Shown piece by piece: positions 3 to 30,381 of a DNA stretch of 32,000 nucleotides. The notes beneath the pieces are model-generated. The model worked only from the letters and a program-made list of their open reading frames with translations, ran no database searches and had not been told where the DNA came from. Where the stretch lies: assembly GCF_003231495.1 (NCBI RefSeq), contig NZ_PQWO01000003.1, positions 180,001-212,000 on the forward strand, given 5' to 3'. Made by a program: the position numbers and the translations under genes. The DNA comes from Acaryochloris thomasi RCC1774 (GTDB lineage Bacteria; Cyanobacteriota; Cyanobacteriia; Thermosynechococcales; Thermosynechococcaceae). Each line of letters starts with the position of its first letter. Position 1 is the first letter of the stretch.

Positions 3-479
3 CTACCCTTCGTGTGGGACGTCACCCAGGTCACCATCGGCATCGGCCTAGGGTTTGGAATCACGCTTGCCAGCGCCGTAGTCTATCAACTTTGGCCCAA
101 GTACCGCGAGTCGGCAGACCTCTATTTAAAGCTCATTCTATCGCCGCTCTTTTGGCCCGATCTAATCTGGCTAGGGCTGCTTCCTGGCCTCAGCGAAGAG
201 TTACTCTTTCGCGGCGTCATGCTCCCCGCATTCGGCCTCAATATAGTCGGTCTCATCATCTCTAGCATTTGCTTCGGCGTCCTACACATGAGCGGCCGCA
301 ATCAGTGGCCCTACGTCGTCTGGGCCACCGCCGTGGGAATGCTGCTGGGCTACAGCGTTATCTTGACGGGCAACCTTCTGATTCCGGTGATCGCGCACAT
401 CGTCACCAATCTCATCTCCAGCATCACCTGGAAATTCAGACATTCAGATCCACCCCCCCTCGAAAAAGTCCAAAATTAG
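3..479 (+). CDS. CPBP family intramembrane metalloprotease (CAAX/Abi type), probably 5'-partial
   Basis: The frame is open to the window start (track start 12 is a GTG). It has the CPBP motifs LSEELLFRG (EExxxR), FGVLH (FxxxH) and IAHIVTNL (HxxxN) within hydrophobic helices. Confidence 0.75.
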   Translation, partial: LPFVWDVTQVTIGIGLGFGITLASAVVYQLWPKYRESADLYLKLILSPLFWPDLIWLGLLPGLSEELLFRGVMLPAFGLNIVGLIISSICFGVLHMSGRNQWPYVVWATAVGMLLGYSVILTGNLLIPVIAHIVTNLISSITWKFRHSDPPPLEKVQN

Positions 480-1462: not shown

Positions 1463-2158
1463 ATGAATACCACTCCTTACATACGCTTACGGCGACTCTC
1501 AACGCTGATCGCTGTTTCAATCTTGACTTTGTTTACCCTGTCTGGCGTGACCGGCATATTACTAGCGTTTTACTATGACCCAGCAGCAGGAGAAGCCTAC
1601 AACTCTCTCCAAAATATTGTGGAGAACGTCTCCAGTGGCTGGCTGATCTACAGCATTCACAATCTGGCCGGGAACGGCATCATCACTTTAGCAATGGTGC
1701 AAATGGTGATCTTATTTCTAGGACGGCAGTTCAACCGCCACTGGTGGCTGTCTTGGATTAGCGGCGGTCTGTTGCTGCTAAATCTGATGGGCCTGGGCTG
1801 GACCTCAATGATTCTGGGCTGGAACCAGGAAGGATTTTGGCGCTTGAAGATCGAGCTGGGCCAAATTTCTGGCATTCCGGTCGTGGGTGAGACCTTGGCT
1901 CGCATCTTGACAGGAGGCGTAGGCATCGGCACAGCAACCATTCAGCACCTATATACGCTGCACAGCTATGTCCTAGCCTTGACGGCGCTTGGTTTAGCAG
2001 TGACCCACCTGACTGTTCTCATCCGACAGCAGCAAGACGATCGATTGTTCGTCTTGGACAAGCTGGAGAAGCTAGTCCAAGGGTCTGAATTGTCAGAAGA
2101 AGCGGCGTCTGAAACAGCAACATCTGAAGAACGAGAGAAGGTGACCTCTGCTTCCTAG
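1463..2158 (+). CDS. cytochrome b/b6 N-terminal-domain-like membrane protein (PetB paralogue-like)
   Basis: GWLIYSIHNLAGNG matches the b6 helix B motif GWLIRSIHRW. It is a four-helix protein with H-x14-H on the last helix and an acidic Ser/Glu-rich tail. It lies upstream of petCA on the same strand. Confidence 0.6.
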   Translation: MNTTPYIRLRRLSTLIAVSILTLFTLSGVTGILLAFYYDPAAGEAYNSLQNIVENVSSGWLIYSIHNLAGNGIITLAMVQMVILFLGRQFNRHWWLSWISGGLLLLNLMGLGWTSMILGWNQEGFWRLKIELGQISGIPVVGETLARILTGGVGIGTATIQHLYTLHSYVLALTALGLAVTHLTVLIRQQQDDRLFVLDKLEKLVQGSELSEEAASETATSEEREKVTSAS

Positions 2159-2175
2159 CGAAGGATGCCAGGAAT

Positions 2176-2493
2176 CTAGAAGTTTTCCACCATCCACTCT
2201 GAGGCTCTGCCCCCTAGCTCAACGGGAATGCTCACGGCTTTACCCAGACGAGGTCGCTCTTTAGTATTCTGAACGTAGTCGGTAATCTGTTGGCCTGCGC
2301 CCCAGCCTTTGATGTAGGTTGCGATCGCATCTAAATGCTCTTGATATTCTAGCTCCGTCATCGGGAACGACGCCTGCTCTAAATAGCGCCACATCACCTG
2401 GACAAAGACCTTGCCCTGGGTGCGCCGCAGTTGAACATCATAGGAACGGCCCCATTTTTCAAGTAACAACTGGTGTAACTCCGAGCCAGTCAT
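2176..2493 (-). CDS. conserved cyanobacterial/plastid-lineage small protein (DUF3067-like)
   Basis: 105-aa ORF. The N-terminus LLLEKWGRSYDVQLRRTQGKVFVQVMWRYLEQASFP matches my recollection of the DUF3067 family. Confidence 0.5.
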   Translation of the reverse strand: MTGSELHQLLLEKWGRSYDVQLRRTQGKVFVQVMWRYLEQASFPMTELEYQEHLDAIATYIKGWGAGQQITDYVQNTKERPRLGKAVSIPVELGGRASEWMVENF

Positions 2494-2797
2494 AGGTCAG
2501 TCCTTATTGATCATGCGCATCTTCTCAGGCTATACCAGATTTTGAGTCGATGCGACAGGTCAAACTATCACTAAATCCGCATAATTTCCGTTGCAGGTGG
2601 AATTGAGACTCAACAAATGGGATAATGATGTCAAGAAATGTAATGATGCCCCTCGAATTTTGGTTGTGACCTCTCTAACGTCAATCTTGCCAGCCCCTCT
2701 GTTTGCAACATCAGAGCTGTCGGCAAATGAAGTCATCGCCCAAACGTTAGGGGACCGTGCAAAGCTGTTGATACCCACATTAAGATCATCGTAAATC

Positions 2798-3337
2798 ATG
2801 GCTCAAGTCTCTGGATCCGCTGATGTGCCCGATATGGGCCGTCGTCAATTTATGAACTTTTTAGCGTTCGGCGCTGTGACAGGCACGGCTATCGGCGGCC
2901 TGTACCCTGTTGTTCGATACTTTATCCCACCTTCAAGTGGTGGATCGGGTGGCGGCATCAACGCAAAAGATGCCCTCGGTAACGACATTGTTGTCAGCGA
3001 GTACACCGCCTCTCACCCCGCAGGCGATCGCAACCTAGCCCAGGGACTCAAGGGTGACCCAACCTACGTAATTGTGGATGAAGACGATTCCATTCGCAGC
3101 TACGGCCTCAATGCAATCTGCACTCACCTGGGCTGTGTTGTGCCTTGGAATGTGGGTCAAGACCGGTTTATCTGCCCCTGCCACGGTTCTCAGTATGACA
3201 ACACCGGTAAAGTGGTTCGTGGTCCCGCACCTCGATCCCTAGCCCTTGCCCATGCCGACGTCGTTGATGACAAGCTGGTCTTTAGTACGTGGACAGAAAC
3301 AGACTTCCGTACCGACGAAGATCCTTGGTGGGCCTAG
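2798..3337 (+). CDS. petC: cytochrome b6-f complex Rieske iron-sulfur subunit
   Basis: It has the Rieske 2Fe-2S boxes [10 protein letters not shown] and CPCHGSQY, an N-terminal TM anchor and the typical 179-aa length. It sits directly upstream of petA. Confidence 0.95.
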
Positions 3338-3426
3338 GCGCACAGGTAAGTTTCAGAACTTTCTAGCAGCGAGAGTTCTGACATTTTATTTTTTTGCTGA
3401 TTCCTTTGATTTGAGTTTGACTGATA

Positions 3427-4386
3427 ATGAAGCGAAGCTTTTTACCCATAATCACTCGGACGGGCCTTAGTTTCTTGAGTGCGCTCCTTGTCTGCCTTGG
3501 CGGCATCGTCGCACTACCCAACGTAGCTCAGGCTTATCCCATCTACGCGCAGCAGGCCTACGACAGCCCGCGCGAGGCCACGGGTCGGATCGTGTGCGCG
3601 AACTGTCACCTGGGGGCCAAACCGACTAAGGTGGAAATTCCTCAGGCAATTCTGCCCGACACCGTATTTGAAGCCATTGTCGAAATCCCCTACGACACTG
3701 ACGTCCAGCAGGTTCTAGGTAACGGAGAGTTAGGGCCGCTCAACGTGGGTGCGGTTATTGACCTGCCCGAAGGCTTCAAGCTAGCGCCTGAAGAGCGGAT
3801 TCCCGAAGAAATAAAAGAAAAAACCACCGGTCTCTTCTACCAGCCGTACAAAGCTGGCGAAGACGGAACCTACGTGATTGGTCCAATCTCTGGCGCTGAT
3901 CACCAAGAGATTGTCTTCCCGATTCTGTCTCCTGATCCTAAGACTGACCCCAATGTTCACTTTGGCAAGTATTCCGTTCATGTCGGCGGCAACCGAGGCC
4001 GAGGTCAGATTCAGCCAACCGGTGACAAGACTAACAACGCAATCTACACGGCTTCTGTCGCGGGCCAAATCACCGGCATTTCCGCTGGAGACTCCGGTGC
4101 AACGGTAACCATTGCTGCGGAAGATGGCGGTACCGTCACTGAGACCATTCCAAATGGACCGCAGATCATTGTTTCTGAAGGTGAGGATATCGCGGCAGGC
4201 GCACCACTCACCAACGATCCTAATGTCGGCGGCTTTGGTCAAAAAGATGCCGAGATCGTGCTACAGAACCCCACACGGATTAAGTGGCTGATGGCTTTCT
4301 TTGCAGCCATTATGATTTCTCAAGCCATGCTGGTTCTGAAGAAGAAGCAGGTCGAGCAAGTTCAAGCTGCAGAGATGAATTTCTAG
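3427..4386 (+). CDS. petA: cytochrome f precursor
   Basis: The signal peptide ends AQA|YPIYAQQAY, giving the mature N-terminal Tyr. It has the CANCH haem-binding motif and a C-terminal TM anchor WLMAFFAAIMISQAMLVL. Confidence 0.95.
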   Translation: MKRSFLPIITRTGLSFLSALLVCLGGIVALPNVAQAYPIYAQQAYDSPREATGRIVCANCHLGAKPTKVEIPQAILPDTVFEAIVEIPYDTDVQQVLGNGELGPLNVGAVIDLPEGFKLAPEERIPEEIKEKTTGLFYQPYKAGEDGTYVIGPISGADHQEIVFPILSPDPKTDPNVHFGKYSVHVGGNRGRGQIQPTGDKTNNAIYTASVAGQITGISAGDSGATVTIAAEDGGTVTETIPNGPQIIVSEGEDIAAGAPLTNDPNVGGFGQKDAEIVLQNPTRIKWLMAFFAAIMISQAMLVLKKKQVEQVQAAEMNF

Positions 4387-7704: not shown

Positions 7705-8562
7705 CTAAGAATAAATGAGCCAAGCAAACTTACCGACTCCAAGACTAATGTACAAGAGAAGTGCGATCGCAAATACTCCGACAAAAGATGAGATCGCAAC
7801 CCAATCAGCTTTCCCTAACACCGACTCATGCAGATAGGTCCGGTCTGCGCTTCCTGAAAATGCCTTAGACTGGAGCACCACCTCTAGCTTTTGCGACTTC
7901 ATCATCGCTCCTAGAATCAGCGGTACCGCCACCCCACCATAAACCTGCACCTTCTGCAGCGGATTCATTTGCTCCAATGCCAGTCCTCGCAGGCGCTGCG
8001 CCTCCACAATGCTCTGCAGTTCTTCAAACAACAGCGGGAAAAAACGCAGCGTTGAAGAAAAGACAAACACAATCTTGTAAGGCACCTTCGTCTGCACCAG
8101 CGCCACGATCATATTGTTGATATCCGTCGTCAGCATCGCCAGCGGAATGACCAAAATCATCGTCAGCGTTTTGAAAACAATATTCAACCCGTAAAGCGTC
8201 CCCTCCACTGACAGTTGAGCACCCCCAACCCAAAGCCAATTAACAGGCAGGGTTAGCAACGGCGTCAGCACCTCTTTATTAGTGAGTGCCTTGACCTGGG
8301 CAACGTTGAAGAATCCCATACTCAACAGCAAAAAAAAATAGAGCGGAATCATCACCTTGAGCAAAGTTGTCAGATAGCTGCGCTTCACGCCCACCAGTAG
8401 GCTAGACACGATGACCGCAAGCGTCAGCAGCCCCCCTGCAATCGGGCTTTCCCACAGGAAGGCAATCACGGTGATGAGAGCGACGATCACAAGCTTGGCG
8501 CGGAAGTCTAAACGAGTGAACGCTGATTCACGAGTGACGGTTTGCAGTCGAGTGACGGCCAT
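7705..8562 (-). CDS. ecfT: ECF transporter transmembrane (T) component, CbiQ/EcfT family
   Basis: Polytopic protein with the EcfT signature region LRFFPLLFEELQSIVEAQRLRGL ... LQSKAFSG. I chose the start at ATG 8562 (MAVTRLQ), which has an AAGGA SD and removes the overlap with the Uma2 gene. Confidence 0.75.
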   Translation of the reverse strand: MAVTRLQTVTRESAFTRLDFRAKLVIVALITVIAFLWESPIAGGLLTLAVIVSSLLVGVKRSYLTTLLKVMIPLYFFLLLSMGFFNVAQVKALTNKEVLTPLLTLPVNWLWVGGAQLSVEGTLYGLNIVFKTLTMILVIPLAMLTTDINNMIVALVQTKVPYKIVFVFSSTLRFFPLLFEELQSIVEAQRLRGLALEQMNPLQKVQVYGGVAVPLILGAMMKSQKLEVVLQSKAFSGSADRTYLHESVLGKADWVAISSFVGVFAIALLLYISLGVGKFAWLIYS

Positions 8563-8608
8563 TATCGTTCCTTGAGGACTAGATGCCAATAGGTCAATAC
8601 AGCCCTCA

Positions 8609-9175
8609 TCAAAAGAAACAGGCCAGTCGACAGCAGAATCCTGGCAAAAGTGGTGAGTCAATTTGATCAGAAGCTAAGAGTGTTGCCATCAGGAGAAGTT
8701 GAGCACCTTCCCGCCGATAAACTTCCAGTTGCTTTAGTCGCCAGTCAACAATCCAGTATTCTTGAACGCCCTTAAGAGAATAAAGTTTCAACTTCGCTTC
8801 TCGGTCTCGACGTTCATTGGTGTTGCCCGCCGAAAGCACTTCGATTATGAGTTCAGGTGCATCAGTGAGATGACCTTCATCATCCATAATTTCTTCTAAA
8901 CGCTCACTGCTGACCCAAACTAAATCTGGAATGACGTTATCGGCATCAGAGAAAATAACTCCCGGCGTAATCAGGGGTATCCCCAACGCTGTCTCATTCG
9001 ACCAGCTCAACAACTTGGCATAAATTCGCCCAAGGGAATTTTGATGCCCGGCGTGAGGCGCACGGGTCACAAAAAGCTCTCCATCAATAATTTCATAGCG
9101 CTTCCACTCATCAGCCGCTAACAACTCTACATCGGCGCTTGTCCAGCGTACTTTACCTGTGGCGGTCTGAATCAT
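8609..9175 (-). CDS. Uma2 family (DUF820) putative endonuclease
   Basis: 188 aa with typical Uma2 blocks: YEIIDGELF, PDLVWVS, PELIIEVLS, KLKLYSLKGVQEYWIVD. Confidence 0.8.
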   Translation of the reverse strand: MIQTATGKVRWTSADVELLAADEWKRYEIIDGELFVTRAPHAGHQNSLGRIYAKLLSWSNETALGIPLITPGVIFSDADNVIPDLVWVSSERLEEIMDDEGHLTDAPELIIEVLSAGNTNERRDREAKLKLYSLKGVQEYWIVDWRLKQLEVYRREGAQLLLMATLLASDQIDSPLLPGFCCRLACFF

Positions 9176-9319: not shown

Positions 9320-12103
9320 TTAAACCTCGTTCAATGGCGGAAGATTATGGTTTATTTCGTTCCTTGTCGCTTTCCATCTCCACCAGACGGCGAGAACAGC
9401 AAAGCAGGCTAACAGAAGAAGCCATTCAGCCGGTTCAGGAACTGCCGAGACAGGTGCGATCTCATCCTGCGGATCGGGCAACTGCTGATCTTCAACTTCA
9501 CGATTAAAGCGATCGCTGGCTTCAGCCTCTTTGAGCTGCCGTTTCTGCTCAGGATTGACCAACACCAGCATCGACGAATAGGGCGTCACAATACTGTTCT
9601 CTTTCGCCACCTGATGAATGGCATCCAACTGGTTAAGCTGGTCCGGTTTGACTGCTTGACTCACCTGCGCAATCCACTGACGAGCGGCCATCGGAGCCAC
9701 CGCTTCTACCGTCTTCACATCTGAATCAGGAGTGGAACTGAGAAACCAAGCATAGCCATCCACAACGTTTAGCAGAGAAGTCCCCTGTCCCAGGCTGGGT
9801 TGGGTCGCAATTCGAGTCATGACTGTTTTGATGTCAGCCGCCACATTACCGCCGGTTTGCTGAATTGTTGCTAACGTTGCATCGTCATAGGCCGCCTGTA
9901 AACCGCCTAAGTGAACCAACCAGAGCGGTGCCGCAAGTGGAAGCGGTGAGCCATCTTGAGTTAGCTCGTAACTACCAGAATCGGTCAGTAAAATAACGGC
10001 ATCATAGTTTTGAGCTTCAGCCACCTGCTGATATTGATCTAGCATTTGGCGAGTCTGAAGCGAACCATAAAGAACCGTTTTTCCGGGGTCAAACGCGTCC
10101 AGGCTGCTTACCTTCTGAGCTTGGGTTCCATCAGCCCTTGTTAGATAAAGATCAGCAGAGTTAGCACCTAGCAGATTATCTTTTAGCCATTGGAAACTAT
10201 CCTCCAGCTCTTTTCGATGGGCCTCCATGCTGTAAGAGCGATCCACAATAAAGGCAAAATGCTGACCCTGAGGAAGTTGATAATCTTGCTCGGCGAGGGG
10301 TTTTGCAACAACGTATCCCCCTGGGAGCTTAGCCTGCAATGCTGACGCGGGTTCACTCACATCAGCAGGGATAGAGGCGGGTAGCCAAGCGTCACTTTTT
10401 TGCTGAGGTTTACCATTGAGCGTTCGCTGGGTGTCTTGGGTCCAGAAGATATTGCGTTGTTCATTGAGGACCGGCAACATCCACTGATCGTTTTGCTTCA
10501 TCACCTTGTAGGTCATCCATAGGTGCATCCGATCAGGCTGACCATCTTGAGGGAGTAAATCCCGACCCGCAGGCGGAATGGGAAAGGCCCGCAAGCGATA
10601 ATTCCGTGGTCCTACCTGTTCAAGTAAGGCCGGATCAACCTGCCGCCGAACTTGGTCCGTGTAAACCTGTTGGGCTGCACCCCGAGGAGCCACGACATAT
10701 TCATATCGCTGGGCGAGATCGGCTGTTTCTCCTAGCCACAGTCCTGTGATGGTGGCGCTTTCCGGTAGCGAGAAGTAGTAGAGAATTTCTGTATTTTCAA
10801 AGGTAGTATTGGCATAGACTTCGTGCAGTTTGATCTCAGCCCAGTCTCCCTCAGGCGTAATCGAAACATCCTGCTGCTGTAGTCGAACGCGCTCGGCACC
10901 AATATCTAAGAGTCCTGCCTTTGCCTCTGTCCGATTAAAGTTTGAGAGGACTGCATTTTGGATTGTGCTGTGTTCGCCGCGAAGGATTGGGGTGTCGAAG
11001 AATTCTGCATAGAGCTGGGCCGCCTTATCTTTATCCAGCGCATTCCCTTGATAGGCAAAAGGTGTCAGTACCGTCCGATAGGCATCCTGAACAGTCTCGG
11101 CGACTGCGTTTGGTGCTCCTAACAAGTTTGAATACATCCGATACATGCCTTTGTCTTCCAGCAGTGGGTAGCGGTAGGCACTGAGATATGCATTCAGTAA
11201 GCCTTTGCGAATGGCATCAGCATTTTGCAAAAGGGCTTGACGCTCTCCTTCAGACTGAGGTTGCTTTTCTAAAAGGGTAAAGGCTTGGGTTTGAGGCTGC
11301 TGCTGTAACAGCAAGAGTAAACCTAGCCATACGGCCAATACTGTTCCTACCCAAGCGCGGGGAAGGGTTTTGCCATGCTGTTGAGAGAGAGACTGTAGTG
11401 TTTGTCGCCAAGACCTGAGAAACAACCGCAACATCCCCCAGGGCATCATCACTAGACCAGAAAACACCATGATGAAGGGAAAAAAGATGGGAATCAGGAC
11501 CACTAAGAAAATTGAAAGGTAAAGCGCACTTCCCATAACCACAATCAGCGGCAAAACGTAGAAGAGAGCAATCACGGACAGATACAGCGACAGCACTAGC
11601 ATGATCGTTAAGCCTGCCAAATGCATCCAGCTGGCCCATGAAGATTGACGGTGATGGCGATGTAATAACCAATGTGCCAAGGCAATCGTCCCGACAGCGA
11701 GCGAGATAAACAGGAAAGAACTCGCAGGTGTCAAAGCTCTGAGAAAGAAGAGGCGAATTGTGCAGGCCATCAGCAGCGGCGCTTCTAGCCCAAAGAAGAT
11801 TTGGAATAGTGAGATCGGCTGGGGCATTGGCCCTAGAGGGGCTGCAGGCTTCAGGTTGCTAATCTTGTTGAGCTGGCGCTTCCGTTGAATGCCGAGCGCG
11901 GTGGAGGTCGTGGGCACCCCAATCAGACCAAAAACAGGAATCAGGATGCTGAAGGGGACTTCGCCTCTGAGGGCGTCATTGAGAATATCCATGGCTAAGA
12001 ACGGGAGGAAGCCAATGAATATCACGAGTAGCAAGGATAGATTAAACAGCCAGAAAAAAGCTGTAAATAGAGAGCGAGACTTGGGCGACACTGAAGTTGT
12101 CAT
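9320..12103 (-). CDS. polytopic membrane protein with VIT-like and VWA domains and a C-terminal PEP-CTERM sorting signal
   Basis: It has about 8-10 N-terminal TM helices, a VIT-like segment YYFSLPESATITGLWLGE and a VWA MIDAS DxSxS motif in FIVDRSYSM. The C-terminus is VPEP + AEWLLLLACFAVLAVWW + RWKATR. The start is ambiguous: ATG 12103 or GTG 12166. Confidence 0.8.
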   Translation of the reverse strand: MTTSVSPKSRSLFTAFFWLFNLSLLLVIFIGFLPFLAMDILNDALRGEVPFSILIPVFGLIGVPTTSTALGIQRKRQLNKISNLKPAAPLGPMPQPISLFQIFFGLEAPLLMACTIRLFFLRALTPASSFLFISLAVGTIALAHWLLHRHHRQSSWASWMHLAGLTIMLVLSLYLSVIALFYVLPLIVVMGSALYLSIFLVVLIPIFFPFIMVFSGLVMMPWGMLRLFLRSWRQTLQSLSQQHGKTLPRAWVGTVLAVWLGLLLLLQQQPQTQAFTLLEKQPQSEGERQALLQNADAIRKGLLNAYLSAYRYPLLEDKGMYRMYSNLLGAPNAVAETVQDAYRTVLTPFAYQGNALDKDKAAQLYAEFFDTPILRGEHSTIQNAVLSNFNRTEAKAGLLDIGAERVRLQQQDVSITPEGDWAEIKLHEVYANTTFENTEILYYFSLPESATITGLWLGETADLAQRYEYVVAPRGAAQQVYTDQVRRQVDPALLEQVGPRNYRLRAFPIPPAGRDLLPQDGQPDRMHLWMTYKVMKQNDQWMLPVLNEQRNIFWTQDTQRTLNGKPQQKSDAWLPASIPADVSEPASALQAKLPGGYVVAKPLAEQDYQLPQGQHFAFIVDRSYSMEAHRKELEDSFQWLKDNLLGANSADLYLTRADGTQAQKVSSLDAFDPGKTVLYGSLQTRQMLDQYQQVAEAQNYDAVILLTDSGSYELTQDGSPLPLAAPLWLVHLGGLQAAYDDATLATIQQTGGNVAADIKTVMTRIATQPSLGQGTSLLNVVDGYAWFLSSTPDSDVKTVEAVAPMAARQWIAQVSQAVKPDQLNQLDAIHQVAKENSIVTPYSSMLVLVNPEQKRQLKEAEASDRFNREVEDQQLPDPQDEIAPVSAVPEPAEWLLLLACFAVLAVWWRWKATRNEINHNLPPLNEV

Positions 12104-12213
12104 GAGAAATACGTCAGATCTTCTAAAGATATTTAAGTGCTGAGTCTCTGAATTTAGACTTCTCACAGAGACTTAGGGATGATGGTGATTTCTGCGGCTC
12201 TTCGGAACGGGGG

Positions 12214-13710
12214 TTAAGTCATGGCGGTTGAGATTGCATCATGCACATCTGCTAACACCGCTTGCACCGCTGCATCATCAGCGGACACTGACTGATCAAA
12301 GAGGATAGAAACCATTGTCCAATGGGGTTCTTTGCGAATCATTTCACTCCAGACGCGATCGAGATAGTGATCGGTTGTCCGCTGCGAAGACTGGAACCAG
12401 TAGGCTGCTTGACGTTGGCCCTGATCAAGTGAAAGCCAGCGTCCGGTCACTTGGCTCGTCAGCGTTCGCTTCTGCATGTCGTCTATTTTGAAGCCGCTGG
12501 CTAAGAAACAGAGTTCAGGCGCATGGTGAGCCTGCCAGCTTGGACTGGCCACAAAAATCATAGACCCTGAAATATTCTGGGTTTTGAAAGCTTGCTTCTG
12601 GGCAACAACACCCGGATATTGGGTAAAAAACATCTGTTCCGGCCGCGTCAGATTGACAGATTCGGCCTGCATTGAGGTCGGCCACTGTAGCGAGTCCCAG
12701 CCGACAGCAGCGGCAGTTGGATGCGGAATCAAGGCTAGACCCAGCAGCAAACCCAACGTTATGAGCGCATTGCGGATATTTGCAGCGGGCGACTGAGTCT
12801 TTCTGGACTCTTGAAGCTTTGTTGTTGAAGGACGCTGATGGGGAACAAATTGGAGCAGCAACAGCGTAAGCAGACAAACGCTGATGAAGCCACATAACCC
12901 AAGCGGTACATGCAAAATTTCTGCTACAGTGCGCTGCTGCAGGACAAAGGTGAGGGTGACAATGACAAAGATTCGGGCGATATTAGCGACAATCAGCAAG
13001 GCAAAATTCGTTACCCCGACCAAAAACCACCGGAGGCCCATCTGCCTGCGTTCTAGCATTGATGCAGCGATAAAAAACAAGCTGCCAATCTCAATATTTT
13101 TGAATCCGCTGCAGGGGATATCAACAAAGGCAACACCGGTACTGAGAACTAAAATGTCTTCAGAAGTGATGGCGTTGACGCTAAAGGGCTGCAGCAAGTA
13201 TTCAACGATTTCTGCAATTCCGGTACGGGCCAGATGGCCTAAGTCTGTAAGCTCTAGAGCGAACAGAAAAACCAGAATGGCGAAGGCACCCACGAACGGA
13301 ATGTTACGCTTCCAGGTTTGGGTGTCGCAGAAGAGGCCCATGAGTCCGTAGGCTCCGATAATGGCCCCGACTGCTGAGAGGTTTTCTAGATCGAGAAAGT
13401 TTCGAGTCAGGAGAGATGCGATCGCAACTCCAACCATCACCAACAAAGGCAATCCTTGAAAGGTCGGCTCCAGCGAAAACTTCCATTGATCTCGGCAACG
13501 AAATCCCTGAATAAAAAGCACTGCAGCCGCCCCGGCTAGCAGCAATATATTGAATAGAGAAAGAATCTTGAGCAGATGCGTGAATCCCATTAACTCTGGC
13601 AAGAACAAGACGAGCCAAAGGAGAATGGTTATCACCCCCAGCAGCCGATTGAGCGACAGGACATGCGTGGGGTCAGCTTCAAAACGAGCAAGAGGGTTAT
13701 CGTAGGTCAT
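12214..13710 (-). CDS. exosortase fused to an EpsI-like C-terminal domain
   Basis: Eight-helix core with the ordered exosortase motifs Cys (DIPCSGF), Arg (ANIARIF) and His (ILHVPLG). After a further TM helix comes an EpsI-like domain with HHAPELCFLASGF. Confidence 0.8.
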   Translation of the reverse strand: MTYDNPLARFEADPTHVLSLNRLLGVITILLWLVLFLPELMGFTHLLKILSLFNILLLAGAAAVLFIQGFRCRDQWKFSLEPTFQGLPLLVMVGVAIASLLTRNFLDLENLSAVGAIIGAYGLMGLFCDTQTWKRNIPFVGAFAILVFLFALELTDLGHLARTGIAEIVEYLLQPFSVNAITSEDILVLSTGVAFVDIPCSGFKNIEIGSLFFIAASMLERRQMGLRWFLVGVTNFALLIVANIARIFVIVTLTFVLQQRTVAEILHVPLGLCGFISVCLLTLLLLQFVPHQRPSTTKLQESRKTQSPAANIRNALITLGLLLGLALIPHPTAAAVGWDSLQWPTSMQAESVNLTRPEQMFFTQYPGVVAQKQAFKTQNISGSMIFVASPSWQAHHAPELCFLASGFKIDDMQKRTLTSQVTGRWLSLDQGQRQAAYWFQSSQRTTDHYLDRVWSEMIRKEPHWTMVSILFDQSVSADDAAVQAVLADVHDAISTAMT

Positions 13711-13930
13711 AGCTCAGTCCTCCAACCGTCAACTGAGCTGCAGATCGTATTGAGACCATGAGACCGTCCTTCTTCTGAAACCAACGTGCCACCAGCTTAG
13801 CCAGCACATAGTCGGATTGTCAGTCGGGCAAAGTCGGACGTTTCGGCATGGGTCTGACAAGCCGAAGAGGAGACATAAATATTATGGTCCTGCCCCGCAA
13901 GGTGCCAAGCTGATCCACTCGACCCAAAAC

Positions 13931-14248
13931 TCAAAGCGATTGAGATAAAACTTGCTCTACGAGCGTATTAAGACTGACGCCCTTAATCTGAGCCTTTTGG
14001 ACGGCTTTTCGATGCAATTCAGGCGGAATTCTCAGATTGAAGCGGCCTGAACAAGGCTTATCTGGATCTTTACCGACGCGTTGACAATCTTCTAGATACT
14101 CATCAATGACAGCCTGAAAGGATGATTCCAGCTCGTCTACTGTTTGACCATCAAAAACAATTACATCTCTGGTGCCAACCACTCGACCGAAGAAAATACG
14201 ATCTTCAGCATCAAACTCAACAGTCACCTCATATCCCCTATATTTCAT
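13931..14248 (-). CDS. hicB: type II antitoxin HicB
   Basis: The N-terminal HicB fold sequence is YEVTVEFDAEDRIFFGRVVG. The C-terminal RHH-like segment is GRFNLRIPPELHRKA. It overlaps hicA by 11 nt. Confidence 0.85.
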   Translation of the reverse strand: MKYRGYEVTVEFDAEDRIFFGRVVGTRDVIVFDGQTVDELESSFQAVIDEYLEDCQRVGKDPDKPCSGRFNLRIPPELHRKAVQKAQIKGVSLNTLVEQVLSQSL

Positions 14249-14498
14249 CTTTGATACCTGCCTTTGTTAGAAAATCACGTACAGCCTGAACTTGATAACG
14301 CTTTAGCTCATTCCCAGGATGAGGAGAATGAATATTTAAGGCAACGCTATTAAGATCGAAGCGCGCTCGTGAACCACTCCCTTGCAGGACATCCCCGCCC
14401 AGTCCCTTGATCAAATTAACGACATCAGGCCATGAGATATTTCTGCGAATCGGTTTTGCAAAAATTGCCGTTAGCGTTTTTCGCTGCTTGCTGTTCAT
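14238..14498 (-). CDS. hicA: type II toxin HicA (mRNA interferase)
   Basis: 86 aa. KQRKTLTAIFAKP ... ISWPDVVNLIKGLG ... GSGSRARF is typical of HicA, and it lies upstream of hicB. Confidence 0.85.
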   Translation of the reverse strand: MNSKQRKTLTAIFAKPIRRNISWPDVVNLIKGLGGDVLQGSGSRARFDLNSVALNIHSPHPGNELKRYQVQAVRDFLTKAGIKDEI

Positions 14499-14995: not shown

Positions 14996-15901
14996 TCATG
15001 CGTTTGTTCTCTGAAGCTGAACCAAGCTACCAACGGGTTGACTCAGTTCACCTCTTGTCAAAACGGGGGCCATGAACCGAAGAGGAGCTTGGTCTAATGC
15101 ATTTAATGCTTCCTGTGCGGTCGGAAAGCGATCTTCAAGATGGGGGTTGATCATTTGATCAAGCCAATCTGCAAAGCTTGGCTCAATTTGCCCCTGTAAA
15201 TGTTCTCTAAACAACAGCTTGAGGCGCTTCTGCGGAAGATCTCCTGGACAGATATGAGTCAATAAAAAGAGTAGAGTTGCTCCTAAAGCATAAAGATCAG
15301 TTGCACCATAGGCTTGTCCTTGTAATTGCTCGGGTGCCATATAACCGTAGGTGCCTACAATCGTACTGCCGTGAACTGTTGTGTTGCGAAGCACAGCTTG
15401 AACAGCTCCAAAATCTACCAGATGGATGTGACCATCATTGCTATACACAATGTTTTGGGGCTTAATATCCCGATGGACAACGGGTGGCGTTAAACCATGC
15501 AAATAAATCAGGATGTTGAGAGTCATACGAGCAATGCGTTGAACCTCAGCCGGATTTGGACACCAGCCTTCTTCAATGAGAGTCGCCAGCGACTTGCCTG
15601 GAGCTAAAGCTTGGGCGATATAGAAGAGGCGATCATGCTCACTATCAATCTGGAAGTAATTCAAATATTGAGGAATCGCGGGATGCTTCAGACATGAGAG
15701 TACTTGAGCTTCACGTTCAAACAGCTCCAACTGCTTCCAATTCTGCATCCCTCGGAAGGACATAGCCTTAAGAGCTACCCGCTGATAGGTCTCAAGATCC
15801 TCCACTTCATAGGTTGTACCAGAACTGCCCTGTCCGATTAGAGTAACGATGCGGTAGCGGCCAAGGACAATCTCATCGGCAGAGTGCAGGGTCTTCAACA
15901 C
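14996..15901 (-). CDS. Hanks-type Ser/Thr protein kinase catalytic domain
   Basis: It has the glycine loop GQGSSGTTY, the VALK lysine, the catalytic loop HRDIKPQN, then DFG and APE. Confidence 0.9.
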   Translation of the reverse strand: MLKTLHSADEIVLGRYRIVTLIGQGSSGTTYEVEDLETYQRVALKAMSFRGMQNWKQLELFEREAQVLSCLKHPAIPQYLNYFQIDSEHDRLFYIAQALAPGKSLATLIEEGWCPNPAEVQRIARMTLNILIYLHGLTPPVVHRDIKPQNIVYSNDGHIHLVDFGAVQAVLRNTTVHGSTIVGTYGYMAPEQLQGQAYGATDLYALGATLLFLLTHICPGDLPQKRLKLLFREHLQGQIEPSFADWLDQMINPHLEDRFPTAQEALNALDQAPLRFMAPVLTRGELSQPVGSLVQLQRTNA

Positions 15902-16519: not shown

Positions 16520-18328
16520 TTAGCGAAAACAACTAGCCACCTCAGCAGGGGTTAGCAAAGGATAATCTTTCTCTGTCAGTCGGCCTAGATGCTGCGCTAG
16601 CAAAACAGCTTGGGGAGGCGCTAAGAAAGTAGATTTCAGAATCTCAGTCTGGTGGTAAGCCTCTCGCAGTGACGTATCAAGCAAGACTGTCCCCTGCCCC
16701 ATAATGACGGCCCGCTCAGCATAGTCTGGCATTAGATGCAGATGGTGAGTAATTACAATCAGCGTCTTGCCCATCTCATGAAGCTGCCGACTCACCTCCA
16801 AGATTGCATTGGCTCCGCGATCATCCTGACCAATAGTGGGTTCATCCAAAATGATGATCTCTGGCTCCATTGCCAAGATGGCAGCAATCACGATCCGGGC
16901 ACGATCGCCCTTCGGCAGCGAAAGCGGATGAACCTGACGCTCTTCGAGCAAATTCATCGCAGCTAAACTCTCCGTCGCTCGCTGCTGAATCGTTCCCGAG
17001 TCATAGCCTAGATTCCGCAGCGCATAGGTGACTTCTTTCTCAACGGTAGAGTTAAAAATCTGGTTGTCTGGATTCTGCGCCACATAGCCAATCCGGCGCG
17101 CTAACTCACTCATCTTTAGCTGCGCGGTGGACTGCTGCCCCAGCATTACGTTCCCAGACGTAGGCTTGAGCAAATTGAGAAAGTGCTTCACTAGCGTGCT
17201 TTTACCGGCTCCGTTCTGGCCAGCAATCAACAGATATTCACCCGGAAAGATGTCCAAAGAAATATCCGTGAGCGCTTGCGTACCGTCAGTATAGGTATGG
17301 CTTAAATTCCGCACTGAGATTTGGGGGGGGGCACCTCTGGGAGAAGACTTCTCAGCTTTCGGGGCTGGAGATAAGTCCCGCAGACGGATCAATTTCTCTA
17401 GAGCTTCCAGGCCCTCCGAGAGAGTGACAGGCATCTCTTGCAAGGCCGGTTCATTAATCTGGGCCATCGTCTGCGTCACCTGAGGGGGCCGAAGTCCCAG
17501 AGACTGCAAAGGCGCAAACTGACCATAAATTTCTGAGGGCGCTCCGGTGACCTGAAGTTGCCCGTCAGAGAGCAGCGCAAGGCGATCTGCGTAGGTTGCC
17601 ATCTCTTCAGCGGCGTGGCTGACCATGACGACGGTGACGCCTAGGGTTTGATTAAGATGCTTGACGGTGGCGAAGACTTCTTCGGCCCCAACAGGGTCAA
17701 GCTGGGAGGTCGGTTCATCAAGAATGAGGAGATCGGGCTGGAGGGCTAGGGCAGATGCGATCGCAAGTCTCTGTTTTTGCCCCCCCGACAAATCCTGCGG
17801 ATGCTTATCTTCCGTCCCTTCCAATCTCACCGCTGCCAACACGCGGGGAATCCTAGCTCGAATCTCAGGCGCTGGAACCTTGAGATTCTCTAAGGCAAAG
17901 GCAATTTCATTTTCTACTGAGGTCGCCGTGAGCTGTACTTCAGGATCTTCGAAGACAGCGGCAACGTGTCGCGCAAGATCGCTAATCGGATGGCTGAGGG
18001 TATCTTTGCCTGCGATGGAGATGTGACCGAAAAAACGACCGCCATAGAACTGCGGCACAATTCCATTGAGCGTCAGGCAAAGGGTGCTTTTCCCCGCTCC
18101 TGTGGGGCCAATGATACCTAGAAACTCTCCTCGATAGATCTCTAGGGAAATATCTTTCAGAACCGGGGCTGTGGACTTGGGATAAAGGTAGTAGACATTT
18201 TTGAGGGTTGCGATCGCATCCATAGCCACAGGGGTTAAGGGGAAGTCAATAGCATGATCGATCTCAGCGGATAAATGCAACTCAAAGGACTGTGAGCCTA
18301 GATTTTGCTGACTGGGAGTCTCTGTCAA
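16520..18328 (-). CDS. ECF/ABC transporter ATPase with two fused ATP-binding domains (EcfA-EcfA', YkoD-like)
   Basis: Two Walker A motifs (GPTGAGKST, GQNGAGKST). The first domain has the signature LSGGQKQR and Walker B LILDEPT. The second domain has a degenerate signature (LSLPKGDRAR). The CbiO-type block VFEDPEVQL is present. The start is uncertain: TTG 18328 or ATG 18223. Confidence 0.85.
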   Translation of the reverse strand: MTETPSQQNLGSQSFELHLSAEIDHAIDFPLTPVAMDAIATLKNVYYLYPKSTAPVLKDISLEIYRGEFLGIIGPTGAGKSTLCLTLNGIVPQFYGGRFFGHISIAGKDTLSHPISDLARHVAAVFEDPEVQLTATSVENEIAFALENLKVPAPEIRARIPRVLAAVRLEGTEDKHPQDLSGGQKQRLAIASALALQPDLLILDEPTSQLDPVGAEEVFATVKHLNQTLGVTVVMVSHAAEEMATYADRLALLSDGQLQVTGAPSEIYGQFAPLQSLGLRPPQVTQTMAQINEPALQEMPVTLSEGLEALEKLIRLRDLSPAPKAEKSSPRGAPPQISVRNLSHTYTDGTQALTDISLDIFPGEYLLIAGQNGAGKSTLVKHFLNLLKPTSGNVMLGQQSTAQLKMSELARRIGYVAQNPDNQIFNSTVEKEVTYALRNLGYDSGTIQQRATESLAAMNLLEERQVHPLSLPKGDRARIVIAAILAMEPEIIILDEPTIGQDDRGANAILEVSRQLHEMGKTLIVITHHLHLMPDYAERAVIMGQGTVLLDTSLREAYHQTEILKSTFLAPPQAVLLAQHLGRLTEKDYPLLTPAEVASCFR

Positions 18329-18599: not shown

Positions 18600-21419
18600 A
18601 TGAGATTTTCTGAGAGTTTCAACGGTATTCTGTCCAAGAAATATTTTCAAGAAAAGCATCAAAAAAATTCAAGATTAAATCAAGAAGTATTTAAAGAATC
18701 CCCAAATTCATTTGGAAAGTATTATCGAGGTCTAGGTCATGGAAGTGCTGCAGTCCTTGCTCAACAATTATCTACTTCTCCCTCTACAAAGAAAGTCTCT
18801 CTACCCAATTTCAAAGGAAAAGGACGAGAAATTTTCTCTCGCCGATTTGATCCTGAACGGCTAAATATCGCTGAGCAGCAGCTAGGCTTTTCTGATGAAT
18901 ACAGTGCCCTCATCAGAAGAATAAAGAGTGCTCTGAGCTTAGAAAATCGTCATGACTTAAGGGACTCTATTGTCCAAGTCGACAAAGAGCTATCACAGAA
19001 AAACCCTCATCAGAACACACCACAACAACAGATAGCCTTTGAAGGATTTCCCTATCTTTCAAATTTTGTGGAGCTATCCAACGATCTCAACATTCACTAT
19101 CTAGATGAAGGGAGTGGAGATCCCATCGTTTTACTTCATGGAGTCCCCACATCTTCTTACCTCTGGCGAGATATTATTCCTGAATTAGCAACAAGAGGAC
19201 GAGTGATTGTTCCAGATCTAATCAATTTTGGGCTTTCAGACAAAACAGAGGATCCACTTAGTTTCGTTGAGCATGGCCAACTTTTTGGTGAATTCGTCGA
19301 CACCTTAGACCTTGAAGACATTACCTTTGTAGGTCATGACTGGGGTGGTCCGATTGGATTAAACTACATTGTTGATAATCCTGACAATGTGGAAGCACTG
19401 GCATTCTTTGAGAGTCCCATCGTTCCTTTACCAAATGTTGACGCCCTCAGAGCATTACCGGGTAATTTTTTCGATACTTTTATCGACCCTGCAAACAGTG
19501 CATCCAATATTGTTGATGAAAATTTATTTATCGAAGGATATTTATTTAATCCTGAGTTCGGTGGGGTCGCGGAAAGCCCCACCGACGCGGAGAAGACAAT
19601 TTACAGAGATCCTTTTTCAAATGCGGAAGATAGAGATCAGCTCCTTTCTTTTCCACTAGAGATACCACTCCTAAATACAACCGGTCATCCCGTCTATGAT
19701 CCTGATGGTGTAGGTGGCTTACCTCCTGAACCCGTTCCGAATATTGCCGAGTTTTTGAACTTCGCGAACTACCTAAGTACAACAGATATTCCTCGACTGC
19801 TCATCGCCGGAACACCAGGCTTTGCTCCAGCAGACGTGGTCCTTCCCCTTGCTGAAGCCATCCCTGGTCTTGAGGTACAGACCGTGGGAGATGAGATCAA
19901 CAATCCGGCCTTTCACTTTTTACAAGAAGATGTACCAGAGCAACTGAGCGAAGTTTTAGGAGCATGGATTGATTCGACAAACGCTCCTCCTGAACCTGAA
20001 CCGCCCTCAGCAACAACCTTACAAATTACCGTAGAGAACTTAGCGCCGGAAAATGGCATTGGCTTTGCGGCCCTATGGTTTGGCCTCCACGATGGCAGCT
20101 TTGATACATTCAACCCTGACGATCCAGCTTCAGAAGCCCTAGAGTTCCTGTTTGAAGATGGTTTAGTCGGCTTAGAAGAGGCTGTCTTGCCTGGGATTTT
20201 AGAAGACATAATTGCCGCCGGTCTAGATCCAGCTCAATTGCCGCTGTCTATCCAACAGGCGTTGACTTTAGGGCTAGATTTACCGACGCTACCTCCTCCT
20301 CCAGGAACGCTCGCGGGAGAATTCCTCCTCGATCCTGCAGGCGCAAATGGTGGAACACAGGGGATGGTAGTAACCAGCATCAGAACCAATCCGGAACTGT
20401 TTGACTTGCTCGACGACCCGAGTGCCTTCCCCCAAAATGTTTTAGACAGTGTCACGAACCCATTCTTCTTTATCCAAGCCTCGGGAGAGACTGAAACCTT
20501 TACGGTCACACTCAACGGCACACCAGAGGAAAATCGCTACTTCAGCTTTGCCTCAATGCTGTTCCCCACCAATGATGGCTTTATCGGCAATGATGATCCT
20601 GAAGCGATAGAAATCTTCGATGCGTCAGGCAATTTCGTCGGTGCAGATTTTATTGTGACGGGTGCAGATGCCTGGGATGGTGGCACAGAGGTTAATGACG
20701 AAGCTCCCGAAAGCCTCCTTTATACCTTCGAAGCATTTGGAGACGGTATTGATGAAGGTGGAACCATTCAACCTTTCCCTGGTTTTCGGCCTCCGGGTGA
20801 TGGAGGAGCCTTAGACTTTGAATTCAATGGCAATCTAGTGGCTGAGAATGCTGATTTTTCCAGTACAGACCCAATTGCCAGAATCACTGTTACAGCGGTC
20901 GATGCGCCAGAAGTGCCGACTTCACCAGAGCTTGAGCCAGATTTTGGCACCGATGGTGACGACATTTTAGAAGTCGCCAATAGCAACGAATTAGTTTTTG
21001 CAGGAGCTGGCAACGATTTAATTGATGCTTCCCCTAGTCAAGGGGGAAATCGTATCTTTGGCGGGGCCGGGAACGACACCTTTATCTTAGGGACAGGAGA
21101 TGTCTCGGCGGGTGGAGAAGAGAACGATCGCTTCTTCAATCAAGCTGGCGGTGAGAATCAGGTCGCTGGGGGAACCGGGGCGGACCAATTTTGGATAGCG
21201 GTGGCGGATCTACCGGGCGTAGCTTTGGTGATTACTGATTTTGAGCTAGAGGCTGATGTGATTGGTATCGCAGGGATTGGTGCGTCATCTGCGGCTGACT
21301 TAAGTTTTAGTCAGGAGGGTGATAGCGCAATCATTAGTTTCGGCAATACGGATTTAGCGGTTTTACGAGGTATTGAGAGCAATAGCCTTGAGCAAAATGC
21401 AACCTTTGCATTTGTCTGA
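18600..21419 (+). CDS. multidomain secreted-type protein: haloalkane-dehalogenase-like alpha/beta hydrolase + spondin_N-like domain + RTX calcium-binding repeats
   Basis: HLD-II-like motifs LLHGVPTSSYLWRDIIPE, GHDWGG and FHFLQEDVP. Spondin-like motifs VENLAP..LWFGLHDGSFD, SMLFPTNDGF and DGGTEVNDE. C-terminal GGxGxD-type repeats (AGAGNDLI, GGAGNDTF, GGTGADQF). No N-terminal signal peptide. Confidence 0.8.
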   Translation: MRFSESFNGILSKKYFQEKHQKNSRLNQEVFKESPNSFGKYYRGLGHGSAAVLAQQLSTSPSTKKVSLPNFKGKGREIFSRRFDPERLNIAEQQLGFSDEYSALIRRIKSALSLENRHDLRDSIVQVDKELSQKNPHQNTPQQQIAFEGFPYLSNFVELSNDLNIHYLDEGSGDPIVLLHGVPTSSYLWRDIIPELATRGRVIVPDLINFGLSDKTEDPLSFVEHGQLFGEFVDTLDLEDITFVGHDWGGPIGLNYIVDNPDNVEALAFFESPIVPLPNVDALRALPGNFFDTFIDPANSASNIVDENLFIEGYLFNPEFGGVAESPTDAEKTIYRDPFSNAEDRDQLLSFPLEIPLLNTTGHPVYDPDGVGGLPPEPVPNIAEFLNFANYLSTTDIPRLLIAGTPGFAPADVVLPLAEAIPGLEVQTVGDEINNPAFHFLQEDVPEQLSEVLGAWIDSTNAPPEPEPPSATTLQITVENLAPENGIGFAALWFGLHDGSFDTFNPDDPASEALEFLFEDGLVGLEEAVLPGILEDIIAAGLDPAQLPLSIQQALTLGLDLPTLPPPPGTLAGEFLLDPAGANGGTQGMVVTSIRTNPELFDLLDDPSAFPQNVLDSVTNPFFFIQASGETETFTVTLNGTPEENRYFSFASMLFPTNDGFIGNDDPEAIEIFDASGNFVGADFIVTGADAWDGGTEVNDEAPESLLYTFEAFGDGIDEGGTIQPFPGFRPPGDGGALDFEFNGNLVAENADFSSTDPIARITVTAVDAPEVPTSPELEPDFGTDGDDILEVANSNELVFAGAGNDLIDASPSQGGNRIFGGAGNDTFILGTGDVSAGGEENDRFFNQAGGENQVAGGTGADQFWIAVADLPGVALVITDFELEADVIGIAGIGASSAADLSFSQEGDSAIISFGNTDLAVLRGIESNSLEQNATFAFV

Positions 21420-21429
21420 GGATGGTGGT

Positions 21430-21453
21430 TTAGGGTTGCGATCGCAACCCTAA
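21430..21453. terminator. 24-nt perfect palindrome centred on HIP1, just after the 939-aa ORF
   Basis: ttagggttgcga|tcgcaaccctaa is a perfect palindrome that begins 11 nt after the stop at 21419. No clear T-tract follows, so terminator function is uncertain. Confidence 0.35.
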
Positions 21454-21513
21454 AAGAGAACCTGAAGAATAGCTGCCAGAGTGATGGAGATAAGCCGTTC
21501 AATATAGTTCAAA

Positions 21514-21544
21514 GGTCAGTGAGGCTTAGAAAGCCTCACTGACC
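21514..21544. terminator. bidirectional hairpin terminator between the convergent 939-aa ORF and katG
   Basis: Perfect 14-bp stem ggtcagtgaggctt / aagcctcactgacc with a 3-nt loop, 19 nt from the katG stop. Confidence 0.6.
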
Positions 21545-21562
21545 GACACCGTTCCGAGAACG

Positions 21563-23974
<2,412 letters not shown>

Positions 23975-30299: not shown

Positions 30300-30381
30300 T
30301 GCGGATGGCGAGAATCGAACTCGCAAGGCTTACGCCACACGCCCCTCAAGCGTGCGTGTCTACCAATTCCACCACATCCGC
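30300..30381 (-). tRNA. tRNA-Leu(GAG)
   Basis: 82-nt cloverleaf built by hand: acceptor GCGGATG/CATCCGC, anticodon stem CACGC/GCGTG, loop TTGAGGG, long variable arm, T-loop GTTCGATTC. CCA is not encoded. Confidence 0.9.

Follow-up and report, generated by a model that had tools for sequence, protein, structure and literature searches.

We analysed a stretch of 32,000 nucleotides (nt) from Acaryochloris thomasi RCC1774 (contig NZ_PQWO01000003.1, positions 180,001 to 212,000; hereafter the window) and found on its minus strand two adjacent genes which are the already catalogued pair of exosortase O (XrtO, family TIGR04489) and a PEP-CTERM integral membrane protein of family TIGR02921. The locus is thus a rediscovery and needs no new name. 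We consider it probable that it is a standard two-gene xrtO operon and constitutes a dedicated, one-to-one exosortase system, a reading that is supported by the conservation of the gene neighbourhood, the tight spacing of the two genes, the covariation of the sorting signal with the enzyme and the lack of any other open reading frame (ORF) with a PEPxEW tail in the flanks. A preliminary description of the same DNA had identified the enzyme as an exosortase, although it did not recognise the named family.

Two catalogued proteins encoded head to tail

The two ORFs are arranged head to tail at 12214-13710 and 9320-12166, the latter, which encodes the presumed substrate, being given in its longest form with a GTG start and 948 amino acids (aa). 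We favour the ATG at 12103 as its start: the database gene call has 927 aa, and the N-termini of 17 substrate homologues align at this ATG with an invariant M1. Because the start is placed there, the gap between both genes is 110 nt; the coordinates, the strand and the gap of 47-110 nt given in the preliminary description proved accurate. In the window the substrate gene starts downstream of xrtO on the same strand, and a terminator scan found no terminator-like site in the spacer at 12104-12213. Promoter and terminator scan counts in the window are at chance level, and the best promoter-like match for xrtO (10/12 positions) is found at 13881-13908, between HicAB and xrtO.

The ORF at 12214-13710 encodes a full-length exosortase O. 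Its match to TIGR04489 spans the whole profile (positions 1-451 of 451) and scores 443.2 bits, the NCBIfam cutoff being 250; it also matches Pfam Exosortase_EpsH with 54.9 bits and the TIGR04178 signature with 27.9 bits (cutoff 23). All 69 XrtO homologues are likewise classed as XrtO by NCBIfam, and public annotations of the homologues of both proteins carry the same family names. The exosortase/archaeosortase signature, i.e. a CxG-type Cys (here PCSG), an Arg and a His in successive transmembrane (TM) helices, is present, the motifs DIPCSGF, ANIARIF and ILHVPLG noticed before being found at the expected places, and Cys200, Asn243, Arg246, His267, Pro269 and Gly271 are invariant in the 69 homologues. 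From the charged loops, Cys200, Arg246 and His267 would be situated near the periplasmic face of the membrane.

Behind this core, a K/R-rich cytoplasmic loop precedes the linker helix (aa 309-337), and these loop charges suggest that the helix carries the C-terminal domain to the periplasmic side. An extra helix followed by a C-terminal domain had been proposed before; indeed, the AlphaFold2 model (predicted local distance difference test, pLDDT, 83) and the loop charges agree on a periplasmic, beta-rich domain of ~160 aa. Its earlier designation as EpsI-like holds in part. The remote homology is reproducible and centres on the HxPExC region, but all EpsI models stay far below their cutoffs: EpsI type B reaches 22.4 bits (E 6.8e-5; cutoff 220) and is matched by 23/69 XrtO members, TIGR02914 (EpsI) 16.9 bits (cutoff 42.8) and DUF3485 (PF11984) 18.8 bits (cutoff 26.1). 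The domain is therefore best described as EpsI-like by remote sequence similarity and not as a member of the EpsI family. His396, Pro398, Glu399 and Cys401 within it are invariant in the 69 homologues. His396/Cys401 is the second invariant His/Cys pair of XrtO, besides Cys200/His267 in the membrane, and may act as a further reactive centre or else bind a metal or form a disulfide. A sequence search of the Protein Data Bank (PDB) with XrtO gave no significant match, and a Foldseek search of the PDB with the model gave a best E of 0.04 and TM-scores of 0.1 or lower; weak matches of the C-terminal domain to Bet v 1/PYL-like folds were set aside as noise.

The ORF at 9320-12103 encodes a full-length TIGR02921 PEP-CTERM integral membrane protein (784.1 bits, cutoff 200, profile positions 9-917 of 922), and the large PEP-CTERM membrane protein family to which the preliminary description had referred is this one. 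The polytopic VIT/VWA protein with a PEP-CTERM tail described there is confirmed, except that the 8-10 TM helices are probably an overcount. From hydropathy, the helices of the AlphaFold2 model (pLDDT 86, predicted TM-score 0.80) and the positive-inside rule we arrive at ~7 TM helices in the N-terminal part, with a range of 6-8. The K/R-rich loops at 73-95, 149-156 and 230-245 together with the basic C-terminal tail point to a cytoplasmic N-terminus, ~7 TM helices and a periplasmic ectodomain. Inside TM3, Glu107 and Arg117 (window 11743-11785, minus strand) are invariant. No part of the protein is more conserved than the juxtamembrane helical domain (aa 270-401), which has the densest invariant positions (for example R299, G301, L302, A305-L307, R311, Y312, F368-D370 and E377), with the motifs RxGLLNAYLxxYRYP and YAEFFDTPILRGE. 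Searches of Pfam, NCBIfam and PDB sequences assigned neither the N-terminal membrane domain nor the juxtamembrane domain to a family. The invariant charges in TM3 and the conservation of the juxtamembrane domain hint that the membrane-proximal part may have a function of its own.

The VIT region matches Pfam VIT (PF08487) with 41.7 bits, above the cutoff of 26.5, and aligns weakly with the VIT domain of PARP4. Pfam VWA models give no match in the substrate. A Foldseek comparison of its ectodomain, however, finds inter-alpha-inhibitor heavy chain 1 (ITIH1, PDB 6fpy) with an E of 4.9e-15 and a probability of 1.0 over 606 columns, and D621, S623, S625 and D708 are invariant in 85 substrate sequences, position 681 being Thr or Ser in 60 of these. 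Because of this structural match and these invariant residues, the assignment of a VWA domain with a site resembling a MIDAS (an adhesion site that depends on a metal ion) stands; metal binding is predicted. The DRSYS motif that had been read as DxSxS MIDAS contains three of these residues (D621, S623 and S625), the domain itself being identified through the fold of ITIH1 and not through Pfam. Beyond the VWA-like domain, the AlphaFold2 model shows a low-confidence linker (aa 873-890) and a terminal helix (aa 891-919).

XrtO is nearly always accompanied by its presumed substrate

Is the pairing of the two genes a common arrangement? We sampled 80 metagenome loci anchored on XrtO and 80 genome loci anchored on the substrate, all of up to 20 kb, and scored all their ORFs with hidden Markov models built from our own alignments. 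The substrate gene is directly downstream and on the same strand in 69/70 testable XrtO loci, ten of the 80 having been left out because their sequence ends less than 400 nt after xrtO. The sole exception (L130, 2-3718, on a 3.7-kb contig) carries the substrate homologue in divergent orientation, on the opposite strand upstream of xrtO. As there is no XrtO locus without a substrate, unlinked xrtO genes must be rare. The estimated spacing in 114 pairs has a median of 8 nt and is at most 50 nt in 82 of them.

In the other direction the association is looser. XrtO is directly upstream in 45/75 testable substrate loci and absent upstream in 30/75, the stretch searched being no shorter than 1.7 kb and no longer than 8 kb; the XrtO-less loci include Nostocales, Laspinema, Microcoleus vaginatus and Oscillatoria. 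The pairing is thus strong one way only, about 40% of the testable substrate homologues being without an upstream XrtO. The one-enzyme, one-substrate module that had been proposed from a single locus is borne out by the XrtO loci, the spacing and the covariation of the signal described below, but it is not reciprocal. The XrtO-less lineages have most likely lost the enzyme. We looked for an alternative upstream partner in these loci and rejected the idea, since their contexts are heterogeneous and contain no exosortase-like ORF within 1.7-8 kb. Seven XrtO-less loci of Laspinema/Oscillatoria (L031, L033, L034, L036, L037, L042 and L048) share a conserved run of four ORFs on the same strand (~425, 151, 239 and 172 aa), ~1.2-4.5 kb upstream of the substrate homologue. 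Clustering of the flanking ORFs of ~160 loci yielded no third conserved gene, the extra clusters being antisense shadow ORFs inside the two genes.

Approximately 70 XrtO and more than 500 TIGR02921 database homologues share gene order, motifs and tail. The nearest relatives of the window proteins are metagenomic (83-87% identity), followed by proteins from Thermosynechococcaceae metagenome-assembled genomes (MAGs; ~70%). Kovacikia minuta CCNUW1 has both xrtO and the substrate gene on a single contig of 7.3 Mb. The pair is found across Cyanobacteria and beyond: it occurs in many cyanobacterial orders, in one Candidatus Sericytochromatia MAG (L030) and in a divergent clade of 16 metagenome loci (L126-L159). 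One locus of this clade (L126, XrtO P0054) appears to belong to an Ardenticatenaceae (Chloroflexota) MAG, the others carrying no taxon label, and the XrtO proteins closest to the clade are from Anaerolineae and Roseiflexaceae MAGs. The tails in this clade and in L030 read VPEP[EH]E[WY]LL. If the clade belongs to the Chloroflexota, an outer membrane may not be required for the system, to judge from the envelope of that phylum.

The sorting signal covaries with the enzyme

The substrate ends in a tripartite tail, VPEP-AEWLLLLACFAVLAVWW-RWKATR, in which a PEP motif is followed by a hydrophobic helix and then by a basic cluster. In the 85 sequences, P889, E890, P891 and L896 never vary, and conservation of E893 and W894 reaches 95% or more. 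The PEP-CTERM tail recognised in the preliminary description is supported by this architecture and by the TIGR02921 match; by the generic models it is less clear: PF07589 scores 15.1 bits (cutoff 20.7), and the window tail is not among the TIGR02595 matches at E <=0.01, whereas 21/30 related tails are. By its sequence, the window tail appears to be a divergent, XrtO-specific variant of the PEP-CTERM signal. That it is the only PEP-CTERM candidate in the window, as previously noted, was upheld by a pattern scan of all ORFs, in which no ORF but the substrate combined PEP motif, hydrophobic helix and basic tail.

The pattern [V/T]PEP-x-[E/L]-[W/Y]-[L/M/I]-L is present in 94/96 XrtO-linked tails and in none of 29 XrtO-less tails, which read VPEPHQWLG, VPEPSGGW (SGGW being the Nostoc type), VPESSNGW, IPEPRMV and similar. 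In a neighbour-joining (NJ) tree, the XrtO-less substrates are distributed over 5 or more separate clades, and a change of the tail has therefore accompanied enzyme loss repeatedly. The C-terminus of TIGR04477, the model of the XrtN target, matches 27/30 XrtO-type tails as opposed to 0/30 XrtO-less tails. Our initial notion that the XrtO-less tails are more generic was dropped, as the generic model TIGR02595 matches 21/30 tails in both sets. The loci amount to 1.96 Mb, and a PEPxEW tail is found in them on no ORF except the substrate. A description of this covariation of signal and enzyme was not found in the searchable literature.

Surroundings of the pair in the window

The flanks of the pair are unrelated to it: HicAB, a Uma2 endonuclease, the T component of an energy-coupling factor (ECF) transporter, NAD-salvage genes and a Ser/Thr kinase (Table 1). 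Polysaccharide-synthesis genes are absent from the window. The region at 7705-9175 on the minus strand holds the ECF T component. The T component and a double ATP-binding cassette (ABC) ATPase are ~8 kb apart, and the xrtO cassette, Uma2, HicAB, the 133-aa ORF and the kinase are found between them. An insertion of these genes, as a block, into a transporter locus is conceivable; no clear break shows in the GC profile. An Rce1-like ORF of the CAAX protease family is probably close by coincidence only, being 12 kb from xrtO and on the other strand, although fusions of EpsH with CAAX proteases have been reported (Haft 2006, PMC1569441). The rest of the window (1463-4386 on the plus strand, 18600-23956 and 30300-31627) is ordinary cyanobacterial chromosome. 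The window also encodes a cytochrome b-like gene, petC, petA, a KatG-type peroxidase, NadA, two tRNA genes and a 939-aa protein with an alpha/beta-hydrolase domain.

Table 1. Positions of the xrtO cassette, its protein domains and motifs, and neighbouring genes in the window
Feature	Position	Strand	Remarks
xrtO, exosortase O	12214..13710	-	498 aa; fusion of exosortase core and C-terminal periplasmic domain
Exosortase TM core, aa 15-286	12853..13668	-	helices from AlphaFold2 model; putative catalytic Cys200/Arg246/His267
Putative catalytic Cys200 in DIPCSGF	13111-13113	-	
Putative catalytic Arg246 in ANIARIF	12973-12975	-	
Putative catalytic His267 in ILHVPLG	12910-12912	-	
Linker TM helix, aa 309-337	12700..12786	-	hydropathy and loop charges; modelled helix 312-326
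EpsI-like periplasmic domain, aa 338-498, beta-rich	12217..12699	-	sub-threshold EpsI matches
HHAPELC motif, XrtO aa 395-401	12508-12528	-	HxPExC region
Intergenic spacer xrtO/substrate gene	12104..12213	-	110 nt; 47 nt if GTG 12166 is used
TIGR02921-family PEP-CTERM integral membrane protein, presumed XrtO substrate	9320..12103	-	927 aa, ATG 12103
N-terminal polytopic membrane domain, aa 7-266	11306..12085	-	~7 TM helices, N-terminus cytoplasmic (predicted)
Juxtamembrane all-helical periplasmic domain, aa 270-401	10901..11296	-	helices from AlphaFold2 model
VIT beta-sandwich region, aa 406-602	10298..10888	-	Pfam VIT; modelled beta strands; ITIH1 alignment
VWA-like alpha/beta domain, aa 615-862	9518..10261	-	MIDAS-like site; Foldseek and invariant residues
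DRSYS (MIDAS-like)	10229-10243	-	
TDSGSYE (MIDAS-like)	9965-9985	-	
XrtO-type PEP-CTERM signal	9362..9442	-	VPEPAEW, hydrophobic helix, RWKATR; VPEPAEWLLLLACFAVLAVWWRWKATR
HicB antitoxin	13931-14248	-	directly upstream of xrtO
HicA toxin	14238-14498	-	directly upstream of xrtO
Hydrophobic membrane ORF, 133 aa	14531-14932	-	matches no Pfam family
Ser/Thr protein kinase	14996-15901	-	followed by the 133-aa hydrophobic ORF
CbiQ-type ECF transporter T component	7705-8661	-	
Double ABC ATPase	16520-18328	-	
Rce1-like CAAX-protease-family ORF	12-479	+	window edge

A model for substrate processing and its alternatives

How would a dedicated exosortase act on a protein that is already anchored by many helices? 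We propose that the substrate inserts into the cytoplasmic membrane with its N-terminus inside and ~7 TM helices, and that the large ectodomain with its helical, VIT and VWA parts is displayed in the periplasm. The PEP-CTERM helix would re-enter the membrane and leave the RWKATR tail in the cytoplasm, so that the ectodomain would be pinned to the membrane at both ends, by the N-terminal TM domain and by the C-terminal helix. By analogy to sortase, archaeosortase and rhombosortase, the Cys200/Arg246/His267 site of XrtO may recognise VPEPxEW at the membrane surface and cleave at or near PEP via a thioester acyl-enzyme on Cys200, which would remove the C-terminal helix. Either water or an acceptor (the head group of a lipid or a polysaccharide of the envelope) could then receive the new C-terminus. 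Binding of the substrate or of the acceptor is probably aided by the EpsI-like domain, which has an invariant His/Cys pair of its own. Processing would thus turn a precursor with two anchors into a mature protein that the N-terminal TM domain still holds, and its presumably metal-dependent VWA adhesion module might be free to extend or become covalently tied to the envelope matrix. The puzzle raised by the preliminary description, why so well anchored a protein needs C-terminal processing, would be answered if processing serves not for anchoring but for releasing or re-attaching the distal end of the ectodomain. Where xrtO was lost, the homologue, whose PEP-CTERM tail differs, would presumably be a client of the housekeeping cyanoexosortase. 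The concept of dedicated sorting systems, and PEP-CTERM cleavage by exosortases with a proposed thioester, have been put forward by Haft (preprint 10.1101/2023.06.07.544157).

We further speculate, as a doubtful extension of this model, that XrtO does more than trim and links the ectodomain by its new C-terminus covalently to a polysaccharide or lipid of the envelope, such that the protein would be held at one end by its polytopic domain and at the other by the cell-surface matrix, as a bacterial counterpart of the attachment of ITIH to glycosaminoglycans. The Glu-Trp pair two and three residues after PEP would set the specificity, and the system would have been lost repeatedly, the substrate being re-targeted to the housekeeping cyanoexosortase by rewriting those residues.

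Several points weigh against the reading of a dedicated processing system. Phylogenetic independence is not given for the covariation counts, and the NJ tree serves as a rough guide; the XrtO-less tails are different from the XrtO type, but by sequence not demonstrably more generic. Dedication was judged within the 32-kb window and the sampled loci, so that other exosortases or PEPxEW proteins may exist elsewhere in this genome. The TM count of the substrate and one modelled helix of 89 residues (aa 155-243) are uncertain, a role of the EpsI-like domain is speculation, and neither sequence nor fold search offers a solved structure resembling XrtO. Finally, in the literature searched we found no paper that names XrtO or TIGR02921 proteins, nor a relevant one on XrtN, XrtK or MSEP-CTERM; cleavage, acyl-enzyme and acceptor rest on analogy.

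As an alternative, XrtO might be a purely hydrolytic protease that clips the C-terminal helix and frees the end of the ectodomain as a step of maturation or activation, with no transfer to an acceptor. There is no acceptor-making enzyme at the locus and there are no conserved exopolysaccharide or lipid-modification genes nearby, and a protein kept in place by its N-terminal TM domain does not need a new anchor. The attachment chemistry described for related sorting enzymes (10.1101/2023.06.07.544157) and the conserved periplasmic domain with its invariant His/Cys pair suggest that XrtO does more; as neither is decisive, we regard hydrolysis alone as possible, if rather unlikely. A more distant proposal is that XrtO serves, as a general exosortase, many PEP-CTERM proteins from other parts of the genome, the TIGR02921 neighbour being just one client. 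The window covers 32 kb, but the contig measures at least 431 kb, and a single cyanobacterial exosortase can serve dozens of proteins, as with the 35 PEP-CTERM proteins of Nostoc punctiforme (PMC12188702). Against this proposal stand the near-universal adjacency (69/70), the signature that is found only where XrtO is present (94/96 versus 0/29), the lack of a further PEPxEW tail in the 1.96 Mb of flanks, and the altered tail of the substrate homologues wherever XrtO is absent; together they make it improbable.

The two proteins might also form a stable membrane complex without cleavage, in which the PEP-CTERM helix docks permanently in XrtO, and XrtO would belong, as subunit or regulator, to a receptor or transporter built on the VWA domain. 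One-to-one, co-operonic genes are what one would expect of complex subunits, and the conserved charged residues E107 and R117 in TM3 hint at a membrane-embedded function. Yet the complete invariance of Cys, Arg and His and of the PEP motif argues for catalysis, and since substrate homologues exist without XrtO in many lineages, the enzyme is not an obligatory subunit, which leaves very little room for such a complex. 

Why the pair matters

We know of no exosortase whose chemical product is defined, and most exosortases have dozens of clients that are unrelated to one another. A pair of one enzyme and one substrate, recognisable by the PEPxEW signature, is therefore among the simplest places to learn how exosortases act. 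It is tractable in that it offers a single substrate for mass spectrometry, an obvious catalytic Cys as a target for mutation and, as natural controls, lineages in which the enzyme seems to have been lost and the tail rewritten. Among PEP-CTERM proteins the substrate is unusual, too, in being polytopic and not secreted. Its VIT-VWA module recurs in the catalogued dedicated sorting systems of TIGR04477, TIGR04286 and TIGR03788, which suggests, by analogy, a shared role in adhesion or matrix tethering.

Comparison with known systems

Compared with the catalogued XrtO/TIGR02921 pair, the window pair is a typical member and shows no difference of kind. The nearest paralogue families of the enzyme are XrtN (TIGR04476) and XrtT (NF033770), which are matched by 69/69 and 66/69 XrtO members, respectively, with matches that extend into the C-terminal domain. 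The window XrtO nevertheless scores far below their cutoffs (62.7 versus 200 for XrtN and 69.1 versus 250 for XrtT), and these are thus separate families. The target of XrtN, annotated as 'XrtN system VIT domain-containing protein' (TIGR04477), is a VIT protein as is the TIGR02921 substrate. The preliminary description had named MSEP-CTERM proteins as partners of XrtN, which is probably inexact, as NCBIfam names TIGR04477 as the XrtN target and keeps it separate from MSEP-CTERM (TIGR04286). MSEP-CTERM proteins and the target of a marine proteobacterial sortase (TIGR03788) are VIT proteins with a dedicated C-terminal signal, too, and match the substrate weakly in the VIT region. In the MSEP-CTERM profile, which has 920 positions, VIT falls at 495-566, pointing to an N-terminal region of similar length, whereas in TIGR03788 it begins at profile position 3, which, unlike the substrate, leaves no long N-terminal membrane domain. 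The signals differ from the XrtO type, being MSEP in TIGR04286 and LPXTG in TIGR03788. The enzymes differ as well: the partner of TIGR03788 is a sortase and not an exosortase, and that of MSEP-CTERM is also distinct from XrtO.

Among solved structures, ITIH1 is the best match to the substrate ectodomain and comprises VIT plus VWA. Its MIDAS is composed of Asp, Ser, Ser and Asp (PMC7170535), to which D621, S623, S625 and D708 of the substrate correspond. ITIH heavy chains are found covalently on chondroitin sulfate and are transferred to hyaluronan (PMC7170535), and may thus serve as a precedent, suggestive only, for a VIT-VWA protein that is covalently tied to a polysaccharide. The identity is 13-14% and the TM-score low (0.28/0.39), so that the domain orientations differ. 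Unlike the substrate, ITIH1 is a soluble, secreted eukaryotic protein with neither a membrane domain nor a PEP-CTERM signal, and its transfer is a transesterification by TSG-6 that is unrelated to exosortases.

With regard to other exosortases, fusions of exosortase (EpsH) proteins to an EpsI-like C-terminal region were described by Haft 2006 (PMC1569441), where an integral membrane family with multiple TM segments also figures as an exception among PEP-CTERM proteins. Only 1/69 XrtO members match the CrtA model and 8/69 the CrtC model, all weakly. In the literature searched, the sole cyanobacterial exosortase with genetic data is CrtB of N. punctiforme, the single exosortase of an organism with ~35 PEP-CTERM proteins; it affects PEP-CTERM exoproteins, and the data concern motility, biofilm and scytonemin (PMC12188702). 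The supplements of that study mention no TIGR02921-like protein. Since N. punctiforme has a single exosortase and Nostocales are in the XrtO-less group, their TIGR02921 homologues are presumably clients of CrtB. CrtB is a one-to-many enzyme, encoded in a polysaccharide locus and acting on clients secreted by a signal peptide, whereas XrtO would be matched one to one with a polytopic substrate.

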